Source: Minisyncoccota bacterium
GTDB taxonomy: Bacteria > Patescibacteriota > Minisyncoccia > Phycocordibacterales > GWA1-40-21
Assembly (NCBI GenBank): GCA_036171775.1
Contig: JAVHRR010000003.1
Location: 1-57,064, forward strand
Direction: 5' to 3'
DNA length: 57,064 bases
A model generated the notes under the pieces. It did no database searches. It had not been told where the DNA came from and saw nothing but the letters and a program-made list of their open reading frames with translations. Below, piece after piece: positions 21,342 through 49,036 of this stretch; position 1 is the stretch's first letter; each line of letters starts with the position of its first letter. The translations under genes were made by a program, and so were the position numbers.

Positions 21342-21366
21342 AAAGGGCCATAATAGGCCCTTTTTT
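21342..21366 (+). terminator. terminator after rpmH
   Basis: Hairpin aaagggcc / ggcccttt followed by a T-run. Confidence 0.6.
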
Positions 21367-21394
21367 GTTGAAATAACACCAAATAAGTATATAA

Positions 21395-21535
21395 TTAACC
21401 CGTTAAAGTTTTTACAGACGTTATTGAAGGTTTTTCTGATAAACATTAATTTATATATTTAAATTTGTTTATAATTTAAAAAGAAGAGTTTTTAAAACAA
21501 TAACACCTTTATCAGTAAAAATTTTCTCGGGTAAA
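21395..21535 (+). mobile_element. family E MITE-like unit (TTAACCCGTTAAAG ... CTCGGGTAAA)
   Basis: Imperfect terminal inverted repeats ttaacccgttaaagttttt and aaaattttctcgggtaaa. Two more copies lie at 40849-40996 and 44583-44722. This copy ends 2 nt before the rnpA ATG. Confidence 0.7.
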
Positions 21536-21537
21536 CC

Positions 21538-21876
21538 ATGTTAAGTCGTAAGTATAGAGCAACAAGGATAAATATTGAAGAAACAACAAAAACAGGAATA
21601 TCAACTTTTGGAAAGTTTTTGTTTGCCAAAACATCAAAGAAAGAAACAGATAAGCCAGGTTTTGCTATAGTAATCTCTAAAAAAAATGAAAAAACCTCTG
21701 TCGGGAGACACAAAATAAAAAGGAAAATAAGTGGTTATATAGAACAAAACATACCAAAAGTCAACCCAAAATTTAAAAAAACAATAGTTTTTTTTATGAA
21801 AAAAGTAAATGAACCCCTAAATTATAAAGAAGTAGAAAAAGATGTAAAATTTGTTTTTGAAAAACTTGCAAACTAA
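21538..21876 (+). CDS. rnpA: ribonuclease P protein component
   Basis: 112 aa and basic, with a GRHKIKRKI (RNR-like) motif, positioned between rpmH and yidC. Confidence 0.8.
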   Translation: MLSRKYRATRINIEETTKTGISTFGKFLFAKTSKKETDKPGFAIVISKKNEKTSVGRHKIKRKISGYIEQNIPKVNPKFKKTIVFFMKKVNEPLNYKEVEKDVKFVFEKLAN

Positions 21877-30360: not shown

Positions 30361-33249
30361 TTATTTGCTGTCTTCTTTCATTTGCTTAGCCACCTTTTTT
30401 GCTAATTCATCGGCAGCTTTTTCTTCCTTGGCTTTATCCTTGTCTGATTGGCTTGTACCCATTTCGGCAGCCCGTGCAATCTCGGCGTTTTCTGGTGTAA
30501 AGTTAGCACTAAGGAATTTATTTCTTATATATTTAGCATAGTTCGCTTTGGTATTCTTGCTTTCTTGAATTGTTTCTATTGTTGAACTAGATAATCCCCC
30601 CCTTAGGTTTGGTCTAACATAACCAAAAGTTGCTTTGTTTACCGCTCCAGATATTCCACCTCCAACAAAATCAGCCATCTTATCAAGTCCTTCCAAAGCA
30701 AAATTTTTCTTACTTAAATCATCTTTTATTTTACTAAGTTTATTGTCTAATTCTTTTATATCATTATTTATTTCAGCTGCTTTTGTCTGTTCTTCAGTTT
30801 TTGTTTTTATGTCGTCATCTAATTTTGCAGATTCTTTTCTGGCGATAACAAGTTCTTTTTCAATTTTATCTTTTTCAAATGTTGTTAGTGCCTTTTGCTT
30901 ATCAGCTTCAAGTTTTTGTTGCAGAGCTATATTTGCCAATTTATCAGCTTCAAGTTTTTTCTTCTCATTGTCGAGCTTCTGCATATTTTTATCAGATTCC
31001 TTGAAATTTTCTCCAGTGCCAGCAGCCTGAAGTTTCTTCATTGCCTCTTTTGGATTGTTTTGAAGAGTTTGTCTTTGTGATTTAATTGCATCCAATTTCT
31101 TTGACAAAGTTTTGGCTTCGGTGACCTCACCATTTCTTGTTGCATCCTCAATTTGCTTTTCTAATTTTATTTCTTCTTGTTTAAATCTTTCCACTATTTC
31201 TCTATCAACAACTCTCTTTTCATAATCACCCGCCGCACCTTCAAAAGCCTCAGCTTGTTTAACAGCATCTTTTTTCTGCTTATCCATCAAGCCAGAGAAC
31301 CCTGTTTGTCCTTTCCCGTATTCTCCACTCGCTTTCAAGTAACTCTTGTCTATGATACCACCACCAATACCGCTAATTGTTCCTGCCTGTCCGAGCACCT
31401 CTTTCAAAGCGGTTGTATTTCTCATATCAAATGTGCCAGTCGATGCGCTCTTTAGTGTTCCAAGTGTTGCTTTTGCTATATTGCCGCCGATAAAGCTTCC
31501 TGAAGCAGCAGCGTTGCTGAGCCTTTGTCCATATTTGCTGTTTGCGAGTGCGTTTGCTCCTCTTCCTGCTACCTGTCTTGCAACAAGAGCTGTTCCTCCA
31601 GTAGCCGCGCCAAGAGCTAGACCTGTTCCTACCTGCGCTATTTTGTCTACAAAGTTGCCCATAGGACCACTCAAACTCTTTGTTAGACTGACTGATTTTA
31701 GAAGAAGATAAACAACAAGGAAGAAATTAAAGAATACCATCATAGGACCAGTCGATGCTTGCTTAGCAAGAATTTGAGAAAGTCGGATAGTTAACAACAT
31801 AAAAAACATAATAGCTGGAGCAATCAAAACTTGATCCTGAAGGCTTTTACGCCAAGCTGTAGAAAATGTACCGATTCCAGGAATAACTTCACCAACAAAA
31901 CCAATAGGAGAAGTGGCCATAAGCACCACCAACATCACAAACCTACCTATAAGAAGTGCAGAAAGGGCGAAAAATACAAAAGTGGTTATTAAAAACAAAA
32001 CCAACCTAGTAAATGCGTTTAATAAGCCAGAGACACCAACAATACTTGCTGCTGAAGTGGCGGTGTTGTTGTTTTTAGTACTATCATAAATAGTTGTAAG
32101 ATTTAAACCATCCATAATCATTCCGCTCAAATCAATATTTGTGATTGCCCCAGAAGAACCTCCAACGGCTTTTAATAAGCCTTGTGTTTTAGAAGTAGAT
32201 TCGTCAGTTACCGTTTGTATCTGATTGTATATTGAAGTTGCTACAAGATTGCTAGCGTCTATGACAACTCTAGTTATAAAAAAACTAAAATTAATTAGAA
32301 CAGCAGAAATAATTATGGACATCAAAATCTTTTGTGCCGCCACCCCAGTAACTATCTGCTTAATGGCAGCATATAGAAGTATGAAAATAAATGTAATGTT
32401 TGCTGTGTCTCTAAGTAAAACCCAAACGGTTTGAATAGAACCATTTAAATCTTTAGTAAAGCCAGTACCAAAAATAGTGAACTGCACAGAAAAATCCAAA
32501 ATACTACCCGCAACAGCCAAAAGAAATGAGGCGATTGGTATTGTAATGAACTCGAGAACGAAGGCTATAACACCGCCAGCTTGGTCAGCAGCAAATTGTG
32601 CAATCGAACCCACAGTACCAGCCAAACCTCCCCAAATAATATCCCACACAGTTGTTTGATTAACCTTTTCTCTTCCAATGGATGCATTGTATTCTTGAAG
32701 AGCGGTGTCATACTGGACGGCCAAAGCAGCAATATTTGCAGGCATACCCATTGAGGTAACTTCAGCTTGTGTATAGTTTGGAATATCTGTAGCAATATTA
32801 CCATGCTGATATTGCTTGTTATTTTCTGTTCCTGGCATAAATGCGTTATTATACCAAAGACCATCACCTTTATAGGTAAAATCACCCGTGCTTATCGTCC
32901 CAGTTAAATCTTCTTTGTATTTAACTGACCAAGTGGGTGGAATCGGTGCTTTTGACGCTTGAGATATTGAACATTGGCGAGTTAAAGAGGTCAAAGGAAC
33001 AACAGTACATCCAGCAGGTACTGTAGACAATACAGCACAGTTTGCGAAGCTTGAGCCACCCGGACTAGTGTTACATGTCGTACTCCAACTTGCGCAACCG
33101 CACGATGCAGCTTGAACGACAGAGATATTAAAGGAGAAAAAACCAACCAATATAATTATGGTAGATAAAATAAATGCAACAGATTTTTTTGTAAAAAATC
33201 TTTTCGTCCTGTAGTGAAATTTTGACTTGTTAAATTTTTTGTTTTCCAT
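30361..33249 (-). CDS. VirB6/TrbL-like polytopic membrane protein with a Cys-rich ectodomain and a long K/E-rich coiled-coil tail
   Basis: 962 aa with an N-terminal anchor, a Cys-rich segment (ASCGCASWSTTCNT...), at least 6 TM helices in residues ~215-540, a Gly/Ala-rich tract and a charged tail of about 330 aa. The first 15 codons lie inside the GIY-YIG element. Confidence 0.6.
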   Translation of the reverse strand: MENKKFNKSKFHYRTKRFFTKKSVAFILSTIIILVGFFSFNISVVQAASCGCASWSTTCNTSPGGSSFANCAVLSTVPAGCTVVPLTSLTRQCSISQASKAPIPPTWSVKYKEDLTGTISTGDFTYKGDGLWYNNAFMPGTENNKQYQHGNIATDIPNYTQAEVTSMGMPANIAALAVQYDTALQEYNASIGREKVNQTTVWDIIWGGLAGTVGSIAQFAADQAGGVIAFVLEFITIPIASFLLAVAGSILDFSVQFTIFGTGFTKDLNGSIQTVWVLLRDTANITFIFILLYAAIKQIVTGVAAQKILMSIIISAVLINFSFFITRVVIDASNLVATSIYNQIQTVTDESTSKTQGLLKAVGGSSGAITNIDLSGMIMDGLNLTTIYDSTKNNNTATSAASIVGVSGLLNAFTRLVLFLITTFVFFALSALLIGRFVMLVVLMATSPIGFVGEVIPGIGTFSTAWRKSLQDQVLIAPAIMFFMLLTIRLSQILAKQASTGPMMVFFNFFLVVYLLLKSVSLTKSLSGPMGNFVDKIAQVGTGLALGAATGGTALVARQVAGRGANALANSKYGQRLSNAAASGSFIGGNIAKATLGTLKSASTGTFDMRNTTALKEVLGQAGTISGIGGGIIDKSYLKASGEYGKGQTGFSGLMDKQKKDAVKQAEAFEGAAGDYEKRVVDREIVERFKQEEIKLEKQIEDATRNGEVTEAKTLSKKLDAIKSQRQTLQNNPKEAMKKLQAAGTGENFKESDKNMQKLDNEKKKLEADKLANIALQQKLEADKQKALTTFEKDKIEKELVIARKESAKLDDDIKTKTEEQTKAAEINNDIKELDNKLSKIKDDLSKKNFALEGLDKMADFVGGGISGAVNKATFGYVRPNLRGGLSSSTIETIQESKNTKANYAKYIRNKFLSANFTPENAEIARAAEMGTSQSDKDKAKEEKAADELAKKVAKQMKEDSK

Positions 33250-33527
33250 ATAGATAACACCGCAACCTCCTCTTTAACAATCTACCTCCCTATGTTGTTT
33301 TTAAATATCGCTCGCGTCTTACAGCGTCTTCTTTATTTAAGCAACTTTCGTAATATATTATTTTCCAAGGTTTGTACCGTTTTGTGGAAAAATTTAAACC
33401 AAGATTATGTTCTTTAAAGCGTTTTTTGAGATCTGACGTAAAACCTGTGTACAACTCATTATTCTTCACACTTTGTAATATATAGTTGTAGAACATAATC
33501 GAGTCAAAATTCTACTACGGGATTCAT
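33203..33527 (-). mobile_element. GTAG-core inverted-repeat unit carrying a GIY-YIG nuclease ORF
   Basis: Termini are ttcgtcctgtagtgaaattttgactt (33203-33228) and agtcaaaattctactacgggattcat (33502-33527). The interior is filled almost entirely by the GIY-YIG reading frame. Confidence 0.7.
33230..33496 (-). pseudogene. GIY-YIG nuclease family (COG2827/UPF0213-like) ORF with an in-frame TAG
   Basis: The 68-aa ORF contains FYNYIL, LYTGFTSDLKKRFKEHN and RRERYLKTT. After the TAG at 33290-33292 the same frame continues as GGRLLKRRLRCYLYGKQKI to a TAA at 33230-33232. That restores the usual family length of about 88 aa and the YLKTxxGxxxLKxRL tail. Confidence 0.7.
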
Positions 33528-38871: not shown

Positions 38872-40845
38872 CTACCACTCGAGGTAAACAATCTTCTCTC
38901 TGTATTCAAAATTTTCTTCCTCAAGATGTCCGTTATCAAACTCACCAAGAAATATTGAAGGAAGATTCATTTGCTGAGAACCATAAATCGTTCTCATTTC
39001 CGCATATGTTAATAATAGCTTAATTCTTGCGCGAGTCAAAGCCACATAAAACAATCTTCTCTCCTCTTCCATTTCTTCTGGTGTTTTTGATTCAGTCCCC
39101 ATTCCTTGATGTGGAAATAAATCTTGTTCAAGTCCTGTAATAAAAACGTAATCAAACTCCAAACCTTTCGATGCGTGCACGGTCATAAGCTTTACTGCAT
39201 TTTCATTTTTCTCAAGTGTGTCTTGATCTGAGGCCAATGAAGATTCCTCCAAAAGTTTTTCTATACCTTCTGGTTTTGAAAGATGATCATATTTAATCGC
39301 AAGAGTTGCAAGCTCACGCATGTTTTCTAATCTTTCTTTGTCTTCATCATTCCCTCTTTGCAGTTCGAGCTCAAGTCCGGATTCTTTTATAATATATTTT
39401 ATAACTTCAGAAGGTTTAAGTTTTTCTGTTTCATTTTTTATTTTTGCAAGTAAGTTGAAAAAAGTATTTACCTTTTCTTTAATTCCTTCAGGAAGTTTTT
39501 CTATCCCTACCTCTCTCCCTGCGGGAGATCCATCTAACGACGAAAAGATTTTTAAAATAGTTACTTTACCTATTCCCCTCGCAGGAACATTTATAATTCT
39601 TTTTAAATCGCTCAAACTTTCAGGATTTAAGCTGGCTCGAAGAAAAGCCAAAACATCTTTTACCTCCTTTCTATCGAAAAATTTTGTACCCAAAACTTGG
39701 TACGGAACATTCTCAGTCAAAAAAGCCTCTTCTAGCACACGAGACTGAAAGTTAGCCCTATAAAGCACGGCTATTTCACGAGCGCTAACACCTTTTGATA
39801 TCAATTCTTGTGACTTTCTGGCTATAAATCTTGCCTCTTCCATCTCGTTTAAGGCTTTCAAAAACGAAACCTTTTCTCCGACAATATTTTTTGTGAAAAG
39901 GTTTTTCTCCCTTCTTAATTTGTTCTTTTTTATAACTTCATTCGCAACAGATAATATGGTTTGGGTTGAACGATAATTTTCTTCTAGCAAGATTACTTTT
40001 GCCTCAGGATAATCTTCTTCAAAACTTAAAATATTTTGTATATCAGCACCTCTCCAACTATAAATACTTTGATCTATGTCACCCACAACACAAATATTTC
40101 TATTTTTCTCAGCAAGAAGTTTTGCTGTCATGTATTGAACTTTATTTGTGTCTTGATATTCATCAATGTGAATATATTTCCAAAGATTTTGATATTTTTC
40201 TAAAACATCTTTGTGATTTTTTAAAATATTATATGTTTTAAGAAGAAGGTCATCAAAATCCAAAGCTTTTTCTTTCGCAAGCTTTTGTTCATACAATGGC
40301 CAAACTTTTGCGGTGACAGATTTTAAAGTGTATCCACCTTCTGCACCAACAGAATAATTTTCCGGAGTGTTTAAGTCTCCCTTTTCACGAGATATTATAT
40401 TTAAAATTTTGTTTGGCTCAAATTGTTTTGGGTCTATGTCTAAATTTTTCAAACACTCTTTTACAAGCTTAGAAGAGTCACTCCTATCCATAATGCTGAA
40501 GTTTTTTATAAGACCTATCAAACCACTATTTTCTTTTATAATGCTAACACCAAGAGAGTGAAACGTACTTATAAAAGGTTTGTAATGATAGCTAAGCGGT
40601 ATGTTTAGAGTCTTGTCTTCTGCAATAATTTTCTCTACCCTCTCTCTCATCTCCTTTGAAGCCTTGTTTGTAAAAGTTATAGCCAGAATATTTTCTGGAT
40701 GAACTCCATTTTTGATCAAATGTAAGATCCTATGTGCCAAAGTTTTGGTTTTTCCAGCCCCAGCCCCAGCTATTATCAAAATGGGTCCGTCTTTTTGTAA
40801 AACGGCCTCTTTTTGTCTATCGTTTAGTCCTAAAAGGTGGGTCAT
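38872..40845 (-). CDS. pcrA: UvrD/PcrA family ATP-dependent DNA helicase
   Basis: Walker A AGAGAGKT, motif II HIDEYQDT and further SF1 helicase motifs (VGDIDQSIYSWRGA, TVHASKGLEF). Confidence 0.9.
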   Translation of the reverse strand: MTHLLGLNDRQKEAVLQKDGPILIIAGAGAGKTKTLAHRILHLIKNGVHPENILAITFTNKASKEMRERVEKIIAEDKTLNIPLSYHYKPFISTFHSLGVSIIKENSGLIGLIKNFSIMDRSDSSKLVKECLKNLDIDPKQFEPNKILNIISREKGDLNTPENYSVGAEGGYTLKSVTAKVWPLYEQKLAKEKALDFDDLLLKTYNILKNHKDVLEKYQNLWKYIHIDEYQDTNKVQYMTAKLLAEKNRNICVVGDIDQSIYSWRGADIQNILSFEEDYPEAKVILLEENYRSTQTILSVANEVIKKNKLRREKNLFTKNIVGEKVSFLKALNEMEEARFIARKSQELISKGVSAREIAVLYRANFQSRVLEEAFLTENVPYQVLGTKFFDRKEVKDVLAFLRASLNPESLSDLKRIINVPARGIGKVTILKIFSSLDGSPAGREVGIEKLPEGIKEKVNTFFNLLAKIKNETEKLKPSEVIKYIIKESGLELELQRGNDEDKERLENMRELATLAIKYDHLSKPEGIEKLLEESSLASDQDTLEKNENAVKLMTVHASKGLEFDYVFITGLEQDLFPHQGMGTESKTPEEMEEERRLFYVALTRARIKLLLTYAEMRTIYGSQQMNLPSIFLGEFDNGHLEEENFEYREKIVYLEW

Positions 40846-40848
40846 TGG

Positions 40849-40996
40849 ATAAACCCGTTAAAGTTTTTGCTAATATTGTTATTGAAAATGCTCATATAAC
40901 ACATCATATACTTAAAAAGGTTTATAACCAAATTTAGGAGTATATTTATCCAGTAAACAACAACATTTTCGTTAGCAAAAATTTTTCTCGGGTAAA
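40849..40996 (+). mobile_element. family E MITE-like unit
   Basis: ataaacccgttaaagtttttgctaa ... ttagcaaaaatttttctcgggtaaa. The conserved terminus begins 5 nt beyond the helicase ATG (40843-40845). Confidence 0.65.
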
Positions 40997-41215
40997 TATA
41001 ACATAACTATGTAGTATGAAGTAATTTTTCAGTAGTTTTTTTAAAAAACCTAATATTTACAACGAATTTTTACAAGCCAGTAACCGTCAAAATGTCTTTT
41101 TTCGGAAAGATATCAACTAGTAATAAACATTTTGGGTGTGGATAAGTAGGTTGACTACCACCCCCCAAGTAGTATCATTAATCTTGCACCGTGAACGACG
41201 TTTGAATTCTGAAAT

Positions 41216-44219: not shown

Positions 44220-44579
44220 TTACTTACCCTTGGAGTGCTCCATACAAGTTTTCGCAGAAGGATTTGCTTCAAGTCTGTGTTCGGGAATATCTTCTCCACC
44301 GACATCACACTTTCCGTATGTTCCTTTCTTTATTTTTTCTAATGCAATTTTTATGTCGTTAAATCTGGCCTCAAGTCTTGCAAGTATACCCGCATTGTCT
44401 CCAAAACTTTCCATTTCGCTAGCAACATCATTGCCATCTGATGGATCAGAACTCATATCGGTTTCTACTGGTTCCCAGTCTTTTGGATTTGAAGGATTAA
44501 CACGTCCGATATCACTCATCTCTTTTTCTACTAATTTTAGTTCATTTTCTAACTTGCCTTTAAATTTGTTTGTATTCAT
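44220..44579 (-). CDS. DksA/TraR family C4-type zinc-finger protein
   Basis: 119 aa with a coiled-coil N-part and a C-terminal CDVGGEDIPEHRLEANPSAKTC pattern. Confidence 0.7.
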   Translation of the reverse strand: MNTNKFKGKLENELKLVEKEMSDIGRVNPSNPKDWEPVETDMSSDPSDGNDVASEMESFGDNAGILARLEARFNDIKIALEKIKKGTYGKCDVGGEDIPEHRLEANPSAKTCMEHSKGK

Positions 44580-44582
44580 ATG

Positions 44583-44722
44583 TTTACCCGAGAAAATTTT
44601 TATTGATAAAAATGTTATTGTTTTATATGCTTTATTTTCTAAAATTTAACCAGATTTATTATATAAATACGGTTAAAATATAAACATTTTCAATAACGTC
44701 AATAAAAACTTTAACGGGTTAA
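44583..44722 (-). mobile_element. family E MITE-like unit
   Basis: The reverse complement reads aattaacccgttaaagtttttattgac ... tcaataaaaattttctcgggtaaa. It ends 3 nt before the DksA/TraR-like ATG. Confidence 0.65.
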
Positions 44723-44757
44723 TTGTAACAAACTTCATTGATTAAACAAGCACACGA

Positions 44758-44797
44758 TACGAAAATTGTGCGAATGTTACGAATGGTTACGAATAAT
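44758..44797 (+). repeat. family B repeat, direct copy 2
   Basis: atacgaaaattgtgcgaatgttacgaatggttacgaataa. Confidence 0.65.
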
Positions 44798-44884
44798 ACA
44801 AATACAAAAAATGAGTCGCTACTTTACAGAAACTTATTTTTTTGTATTTTCTAAGAAGCTAATAAGCTACAAGCTAAAAAGCTG

Positions 44885-48420: not shown

Positions 48421-48942
48421 CTAGCGTCTCTTTCCTCCCCCAACCATATATTTATAAGGGTTTGTGTCTAAATCCATAAAATCATCTACAACCTCTGTGA
48501 GTTTTTGTGAAGTTGATTTGCCGAAAGAAACCAATTCTACCTGACAACCTTGGGTTATTTTCAAATATTCAACAAGTGGTATAAAGTCACCATCCCCTGT
48601 TACTAAAATAACCGCATCAAGCTTTGATGAAAGCGAAATTGCGTCTATTGCCATTGCTACATCCCAATCCCCTTTCTTTGAACCTCCAGCAAAAATCTGA
48701 AGATTTTTTGTTTTTATTGTGATTCCAACTTTACCTAATGCTTCAAAAAAACTTTTTTCATCACCAGATTCTGTCGTGATAACGTACGCTGTTGCTCTTA
48801 TTAAAACTCTTCCATCCAATGCATCTTTTACTACTTGTCCAAAATTTACCTTAGCACTATATAAATTCTTTGCAGAATGATAAATATTTTGTGTATCTAT
48901 AAAAATTCCTACCCTTTGTCCTTTGTGTTTAATTACGCTCAT
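48421..48942 (-). CDS. NYN/LabA-like domain protein
   Basis: 173 aa with VGIFIDTQNIYHS and ILVTGDGDFIPLV motifs typical of NYN (LabA-like) nucleases. Confidence 0.7.
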   Translation of the reverse strand: MSVIKHKGQRVGIFIDTQNIYHSAKNLYSAKVNFGQVVKDALDGRVLIRATAYVITTESGDEKSFFEALGKVGITIKTKNLQIFAGGSKKGDWDVAMAIDAISLSSKLDAVILVTGDGDFIPLVEYLKITQGCQVELVSFGKSTSQKLTEVVDDFMDLDTNPYKYMVGGGKRR

Positions 48943-49036
48943 ATATATAAATTAAATTCTTTTATTAAAATACTTGCCCGAAGAAAATTTTTAATAAAAT
49001 TTTGACGGGTCGACTTCCCTAATTGTATCACGAATT

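Follow-up and report, generated by a model that had tools for sequence, protein, structure and literature searches.

Three elements of about 140 nt, grouped as family E, lie within a few nucleotides of three different start codons in the window, i.e. the whole stretch of DNA analysed (57,064 nt, contig JAVHRR010000003.1 of assembly GCA_036171775.1, from a Minisyncoccota bacterium), and raise the question whether they are a structured leader shared by the host's own genes or a mobile module inserted at start codons. The source genome (G000; the genomes compared are denoted by G numbers and contigs by C numbers) comprises 759 kb in 50 contigs at 35% G+C, the window being contig C3. The comparisons described below make it probable, in our judgement with good confidence, that family E consists of small mobile elements, not of a host regulatory leader, and that these land repeatedly between promoter and start codon. 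The features of the window on which the analysis was built are the following.

21398–21535, + strand: family E copy 1, a gene-less short form of 138 nt, predicted to be the entire rnpA leader (folding z = −3.9)
40853–40996, − strand as the uvrD leader, + strand by its end sequence: family E copy 2, 144 nt (z = −3.5)
44583–44719, − strand: family E copy 3, 137 nt, predicted to form the leader of the DksA/TraR-like gene (z = −5.4)
21368–21395, + strand: host promoter of rnpA, TTGAAA, 16 nt, TATAAT, with the −10 box at 21390–21395, 2 nt before the element
21342–21363, + strand: intrinsic terminator 3′ of rpmH
21538–21876, + strand: rnpA (RNase P protein, Pfam PF00825), ATG 2 nt past copy 1
40995–41003, − strand: host extended −10 box of uvrD, TGTTATATT on the − strand, the same at the sites of relatives without the element
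38872–40845, − strand: uvrD/pcrA-type helicase gene (Pfam PF00580, PF13361)
44722–44730, − strand: host extended −10 box of the dksA-like gene, TGTTACAAT on the − strand, 2 nt before copy 3
44220–44579, − strand: DksA/TraR-type zinc-finger gene (Pfam PF01258), ATG 3 nt past copy 3
48976–49011, − strand: mini hairpin of 36 nt with family-E-like ends, ACCCGTCAAAATTTT-ATTA-AAAATTTTCTTCGGGC

The three copies were found where the initial annotation had placed them, with limits refined to those listed, and the terminal inverted repeats described there are real in all three: the left end is ACCCGTTAAAGTTTTT and the right end AAA(A)TTTT(T)CTCGGGTAAA (AAATTTTCTCGGGTAAA). Each copy folds as one long hairpin, far more stable than its own shuffles (z values above). 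The short distances to the start codons hold as well, the ATG of rnpA being located at 21538 (2 nt), that of the DksA/TraR-like gene at 44579 (3 nt, CAT) and that of uvrD at 40845, which is 7 nt from ACCCG or 4–5 nt by the wider limit used initially; the proposed identities of the three genes agree with their Pfam profiles, and the terminator assumed to follow rpmH was located. Copy 2 is reversed at uvrD, with its CTCGGGTAAA end toward the promoter and its ACCCG end toward the uvrD ATG; the order on the − strand is TGTTATATT, TA, CCCGAG ... AACGGG, TTTATCCA, ATG, and no + strand gene start was found within 220 nt of this copy.

Two kinds of short sequence were seen in connection with the elements. 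The 36-nt mini hairpin of the window lies 33 nt upstream of the ATG of a 173-aa ORF (48421–48942, − strand), and a second one of the same length, also with family-E-like ends and without interior, lies at about position 2981 of contig C18 of the source genome; both may be a remnant (from excision) or a minimal relative of family E. Short repeat runs of the TTCGTAA / ATTCGTA type adjoin family E sites, in the window at 44750–44800 and upstream of rnpA in G015, where such a run occupies the interval from −10 box to ATG instead of a family E copy.

The initial annotation counted three copies, which is right for the window, and a search of the 759-kb source genome with both ends raised the total to about 40 paired copies; 29 of the 40 measure 135–145 nt and the rest 91–298 nt. 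The bias toward start codons turned out to be strong genome-wide: a start codon lies −1 to +7 nt from the right (CTCGGGTAAA) end in 31 of 40 copies, compared with 1.6% at random intergenic positions, most commonly in the arrangement CGGGTAAATG. At the other end, a TATAAT-like hexamer terminates exactly 2 nt before ACCCG in 25 of the 40 (background 0.9%), and 16 of these 25 in-register −10 boxes carry a TG extension; 5′ of the hexamer the copies have nothing in common. The orientation relative to the gene is the same in 37 copies, the other 3, including the uvrD copy, serving the gene via the opposite end. Among 41 further copies from other genomes (35 public contigs), an ATG was found no more than 8 nt from the right end in 31. 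The genes served have housekeeping functions and are unrelated to one another, among them rnpA, uvrD, pheS, murG, ftsW, dnaX, ychF and a gene of the rsmI type.

Two arrangements among these copies deserve separate description. At C25:20931–21292 of the source genome, two copies (136 and 227 nt) stand in direct tandem 5′ of a pilB/gspE-type ATPase gene, with an overlap between the right end of the first and the left end of the second (CTCGGGTGA|ACCCG). Two short copies with 90% identity (C47:472–608 and C48:4240–4377) are both followed by the same 12 nt, ATGGAAAACAAA (MENK), which are the first codons of two unrelated genes, one of them without a close orthologue in the genus; this shared stretch hints that first codons can travel with the element.

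The absence of Shine–Dalgarno sequences before the three window genes, remarked upon initially, is a genome-wide trait. Upstream of the start codons of the source genome, no peak of GGAG or GAGG was obtained, and the 3′ tail of the 16S rRNA past helix 45 reads GGAAUUUUUCAAAU / GGAATTTTTCAAATCG, without CCUCC (C34, − strand, first ~400 nt of the reverse complement). In the same genome, TATAAT-like hexamers peak sharply at −12 from the start codons, which points to leaderless mRNAs. A substitute Shine–Dalgarno pairing with the 16S tail was considered and discarded, as words complementary to GGAAUUUUUCAAAU formed no clean peak beyond A/T richness and the element copies themselves.

The initial annotation also held that the element probably supplies both promoter and leader to rnpA, and here the two parts fared differently. 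A host promoter (TTGAAA-16-TATAAT) lies outside the element, between the rpmH terminator and its left end, and relatives without the element have this −10 box and the sequence 5′ of it as well. Likewise, TACAAT of the dksA-like gene is kept at the orthologous sites that lack the element (termed empty below) in G011, G007, G002 and G017, and TGTTATATT followed by 6–7 nt and ATG is found at the empty uvrD sites of G004, G017, G002, G005 and G006. For all three window copies, the promoter belongs to the host and not to the element. The role as leader is probable: transcription usually starts 7 nt past a −10 box, and the host promoter would accordingly start it at about that distance, at the G of ACCCG, which would turn the entire element into a 5′ leader. 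Initiation independent of a Shine–Dalgarno sequence would use the host AUG, located immediately 3′ of the hairpin foot. Essential genes carry the element, which must therefore be compatible with their expression. A different situation may apply to the subfamily with TTTGTT arms, of which the window has no copy: an internal TGnTATAAT is conserved in at least 11 of its copies from several genomes, and in the source genome it precedes ftsW, a gene of the rsmI type and recG. This subfamily may be a portable promoter.

For the comparison of filled and empty sites, orthologues of six host genes were taken from all 26 genomes of the genus; five were usable, the sixth, a CDP-alcohol-transferase-like gene, having no close orthologue in the genus. 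The sites at rnpA, uvrD, the dksA-like gene, pheS and murG are empty in most of the 26 genomes, and for four of the five genes the empty sites are plain leaderless promoters (TATAAT, 6–8 nt, ATG). The rnpA site is empty in G004, G003, G007, G017, G022 and G002 (TATAAT, 6–7 nt, ATG), all of which agree with G000 in the sequence 5′ of the −10 box, and filled only in G000, by the short form, and in G008, by a form of roughly 230 nt. At uvrD, G017 reads TATATT-TATCCG-ATG, compared with TATATT-TA-element-TTTATCCA-ATG in G000. The site of the dksA-like gene is empty in most relatives and filled at the same point in G000 and G004 by different subfamilies. For pheS, empty sites (TGTATAAT, 7–8 nt, ATG) were found in G004, G017, G011, G007, G003, G002 and G018 and filled ones in G000 and G008 (298-nt copies) and G022 (139-nt copy); G003 and G002, the closest relatives of G008 and G022, have empty sites. 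Empty murG sites are operon-internal, consisting of the ftsW stop, 8–12 nt and the ATG with no promoter, so a leaderless promoter is not the sole target; here, G000, G007 and G002 hold one family E subfamily and G022 another. The mraY-like gene is a further locus at which filled and empty orthologous sites were seen. What these sites record is presence/absence polymorphism and repeated independent occupation of the same few nucleotides.

Elements other than family E were met at some of the same genes. The murG site of G004 holds an unrelated hairpin element, CCCTGTTAAATG...ATTTAACAGGG, between the same flanks, with AATAATTCA on the left and TAAATG on the right. Members of another family, with the ends CCCGTTAGAGAC...GTCTCTAACGGG, stand at or after the start codon of the dksA-like gene in G017 and of murG in G001; in the former the start codon is duplicated, with ATGGAT on both sides of the element. 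The ends of this family resemble CCCGTTAAAG of family E.

Of the two natures that the initial annotation had offered, a mobile module and a shared structured leader, the first was upheld, since filled and empty orthologous sites exist side by side and relatives do not carry the same sequence as a conserved vertical leader. The shared leader of a regulon was rejected, the genes downstream being unrelated housekeeping genes and their orthologous sites empty. Nor was the element recognised as a known RNA family: a search of the whole window against Rfam gave 0 matches at the gathering score, and at E < 1 copy 1 gave only a chance-level match to rivX.

Three copies in the source genome are 298 nt long (C33:28069–28366, C33:17487–17784 and C34:27972–28269), and each contains an intact ORF of 89 codons that starts 27 nt from the left end. 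The predicted 89-aa protein is a GIY-YIG domain (Pfam PF01541, 53.7 and 51.9 bits at a cut-off of 22.6, profile positions 2–74 of 78). Its signature residues are present (YLYII, MYTGCT, KARL, LHN, YYEAY, NREKY) and kept in the alignment with 1ZG2, the UPF0213 protein BH0048, which is the nearest PDB sequence (E = 0.002). The last codons (..SKNFLG) and the TAA stop are the conserved right end AAAAATTTTCTCGGGTAA, which abuts the host ATG, and in complete copies the resulting UAAAUG would permit termination–reinitiation after the nuclease frame. The complete element measures 298 bp, with terminal inverted repeats ACCCG...CGGGT extended by A/T runs and a single gene; no transposase (DDE, HUH, serine or tyrosine) was found in it, the GIY-YIG nuclease being the sole ORF. 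Among five intact nuclease copies from four genomes, dN/dS ranged from 0.08 to 0.27, and by these ratios the gene is judged to be under purifying selection. The two C33 copies, at the mraY-like gene and at pheS, are 100% identical over 298 nt with flanks that differ from position −1, and such identity at two loci speaks for recent activity.

The forms of 135–230 nt have both ends and the last ~45 nt in common with the 298-nt ORF form, and copies of 150–231 nt are decayed, keeping a hairpin from the start-codon region and the LLHNA codons. About 37 copies in the source genome are ORF-less. They are small, bear terminal inverted repeats and share their ends with a longer coding element, as is characteristic of MITEs, and the copies of 135–230 nt, all three of the window included, are best read as MITE-like internal-deletion derivatives. 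A small upstream ORF in the short copies was considered as well and dismissed, because the AUG in helix B (see below) is not conserved and the interior contains indels and stops.

Beyond the genus, homologues of 84–89 aa form >100 clusters, mostly from Patescibacteria MAGs and all carrying PF01541; of the genomes sampled in the class, 203 of 301 contain them, as do 160 of 221 genera. The layout recurs in distant members whose terminal repeats differ, the ORF again stopping inside the right repeat and adjacent to the host ATG. One such cassette, in G099, closes with ...GGCGGGTAA immediately 5′ of the ATG of a host ORF that starts MPTINQLIKKGR and was read as rpsL from the N-terminus alone. Two further GIY-YIG mini-genes of other families were noted in the source genome, one in the window (33242–33496, − strand), broken by a TAG stop, and one at C10:8910–9143; with 45–51% identity to the family E nuclease, they indicate that the genome hosts several families of such cassettes.

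The compensatory changes within copies that had been described initially were confirmed and extended. Column-wise counting was used for the outer stem only, and the inner helices were scored by a per-copy helix search with cross-copy controls; column-wise counts for the inner helices were abandoned, as the register of the MAFFT alignment is not constant across subfamilies. Helix P2 has four pairs with changes in both partners (82 cells), and the score obtained was matched by 0 of 500 shuffles. Inside P2, each of two helices, A:A′ and B:B′, can be formed by almost all copies, from numerous different complementary words (A:A′ as GTTATTG/CAATAAC, GTGTTGA/TCAACAC, TGTTTGTT/AACAAACA and TGCTTATT/AATAAGCA; B:B′ as GAAAATG/CATTTTC, TGAAGATG/CATCTTCA and TGAAAGTG/CACTTTCA), and they average 7.0 and 7.5 bp in native copies vs 4.7 and 6.0 bp when the arms are mixed across copies. 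Their order, A-B...A′-B′ without linkers, means that A:A′ and B:B′ cannot coexist, and the minimum-energy fold takes one or the other, differing between copies; in the long forms, pairing of these 3′ words is of the ordinary nested kind. A pseudoknot holding both inner helices was rejected on geometry, there being no linkers on either strand and P2 closing the wrong ends. In 71 vs 30 of 101 copies the sense strand has the better fold, by about 4 kcal/mol over the antisense strand; the evidence is weak, as common descent of the copies inflates the statistic. The best-conserved part of the element is the outermost ACCC/GGGU pairing. With transcription from the G of ACCCG this outermost helix cannot form in RNA, and its conservation therefore points to a DNA-level role of the termini.

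The junctions show how the element is fitted in. The left end lies 2–3 nt past the −10 box (exactly 2 in 25 of 40) and the right end a varying 0–7 nt before the ATG; the usual landing site is the 6–8-nt discriminator of a leaderless promoter. The window copies are compatible with plain insertion and a TA(A) duplication of 2–4 bp, and many other copies are without most of the old 6–7-nt spacer, as in rnpA of G008 compared with G003, where AAAGCAA is replaced by TAA...TAA, and in pheS of G000 and G008. Single target-duplication rules (TAA, TA, none, or TAA inside the element) were tried, and none fits all filled/empty pairs.

A scheme for the spread of family E can be proposed, in which the putative nuclease would, like the Ssn enzymes discussed below, recognise the hairpin or a terminal motif on single-stranded DNA and drive mobility. 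Spread would proceed either by direct insertion followed by trimming or by cut-and-repair, with a filled site as the template and crossovers located in the TATAAT and ATG common to both sites; the latter route would in addition account for the fixed register and for the exchange of subfamilies at a single site. The hairpin would be kept for mobilisation, to keep the interrupted essential gene expressible, or for both. A bolder version, which we regard as doubtful, would make the ~300-bp cassettes a new autonomous class of mobile element, possibly the smallest that encodes a protein, with a single-strand-specific nuclease that targets the 6–8-nt discriminator melted by RNA polymerase at leaderless promoters and with each copy acting as a two-state leader. 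A target of polymerase-melted DNA would explain why the left end lies 2–3 nt past the −10 box, and the two-state hairpin leader would keep the essential gene translatable by ribosomes without an anti-Shine–Dalgarno sequence.

The structural data bear on a competing explanation, namely that family E is mobile by origin and is now an expression module used by the host, be it a stabiliser of mRNA 5′ ends, a two-state switch or, in one subfamily, a portable promoter, so that host selection and not nuclease-driven spread accounts for abundance, orientation and covariation. We consider this unlikely. It is in line with the common orientation in 37 of 40 copies, the better folding of the sense strand (71 vs 30 copies, by about 4 kcal/mol), the retention of two mutually exclusive helices by compensatory change, the internal TGnTATAAT kept in at least 11 TTTGTT copies of several genomes and the tolerance of the element by essential genes. 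However, sister species have the same genes without the element, the genes served are without common function and the strand bias is inflated by common descent, while identical copies and nuclease genes under apparent purifying selection argue for ongoing selfish spread.

Very little probability is given to an ordinary MITE that is moved in trans by a conventional transposase, with the GIY-YIG gene a mere passenger in a few copies. The nuclease frame enters the right terminal repeat and stops at its TAA, the same design recurs in distant families with differing ends, with which a passenger would not co-vary, and the length of the nuclease is held at 84–89 aa across >100 clusters; these observations weigh against such an origin, although the terminal inverted repeats, the small size, the many gene-less copies and the possible TA(A) duplication at the window copies would suit it. 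Still more remote is a vertically inherited, non-mobile cis-regulatory RNA leader of a regulon, riboswitch-like or protein-binding, to which we attach hardly any credence: the fixed position from transcription start to ATG and the covarying stems would be expected of one, but most sister species have empty orthologous sites, Rfam yields no match, the genes are functionally unrelated and the full-length copies are protein-coding.

Among published systems, the Ssn nucleases with their NTS repeats are the closest. Ssn proteins are single-domain GIY-YIG enzymes of 94 aa that cut ssDNA beside their own NTS hairpin repeat (Chenal et al. 2025, PMC11893778). Genomes with Ssn have an IS-like NTS-ssnA-NTS layout, noted by the authors, and hundreds of gene-less repeats; the enzymes are reported to modulate transformation, and no insertion at promoters or start codons is described (PMC11893778). 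Common to both systems are a one-domain GIY-YIG protein of about 90 aa (SsnA 94, family E 89), a nuclease gene bracketed by its own hairpin-forming repeat and many gene-less repeat copies per genome. They differ in that the NTS hairpin (CGTCATTCCCGCG...CGCGGGAAT...) is compact, with 30 bp, and dispersed around genes, whereas the family E repeats are the two ends of a 135–300-bp unit that forms one long hairpin, the family E ORF enters the right repeat, and the unit sits between −10 box and ATG. The family E ends ACCCGTTAAAGTTTTT and AAATTTTCTCGGGTAAA, 100–270 nt apart, do not match the NTS/SRM consensus (CGTCATTCCCGCGMAVGCGGGAATCYRG-like).

Correia elements (CREE, NEMIS) of Neisseria are multicopy elements of 100–150 bp with terminal inverted repeats, which are co-transcribed with adjacent genes as hairpins and in some cases act as promoters. 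Family E resembles them in size, terminal inverted repeats, copy number, predicted hairpin co-transcription and the presence of promoters in some copies. No autonomous parent is known for Correia elements, whose insertions occur at TA in all parts of intergenic DNA; family E, in contrast, has a nuclease-encoding parent and a near-exclusive register with −10 box and start codon. The seg and mobE genes of T-even phages encode free-standing GIY-YIG homing endonucleases with a separate DNA-binding domain and one cognate site. They too are selfish GIY-YIG genes between host genes, and their cut-and-repair with co-conversion of flanks would fit the replaced spacers of family E, but the latter has the catalytic domain only, together with terminal repeats, dozens of sites in each genome and many derivatives without the gene. 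Finally, REP/BIME repeats with RAYT and the 'peel and paste' IS200/IS605 elements depend on HUH/Y1 transposases (cited in PMC11893778). They share with family E hairpin repeats tied to one small ssDNA nuclease and non-autonomous hairpin copies, and differ in that the nuclease is not of the GIY-YIG type and REPs lie mostly after genes. We know of nothing like the −10/ATG register in either. A search of full-text literature found no description of elements such as family E in Patescibacteria or elsewhere. Family E combines known kinds, namely GIY-YIG selfish genes with hairpin repeats and MITEs, with a target preference that is unusual and apparently unpublished.

For the biology of these bacteria, the finding concerns genomes with little room for such guests. 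Spare DNA is almost absent from ultra-small Patescibacteria. Nevertheless, about 5% of the genes of the source genome appear to carry the element as their entire 5′ leader, among them rnpA, pheS, murG, ftsW and dnaX, and two thirds of the genomes sampled in the class contain related nuclease mini-genes. Pairs of nuclease and hairpin may yield new site-specific single-strand nucleases of the Ssn kind. If the proposed interpretation is true, a transposon-like life cycle needs no enzyme other than a GIY-YIG nuclease, and the promoter-to-start junctions of leaderless genes would be a specific and reusable landing pad. Annotators and those who search for RNA motifs would keep taking such elements for regulatory leaders. 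Leaderless genes would gain long structured leaders, and sometimes new promoters, overnight, providing a ready source of expression variation.
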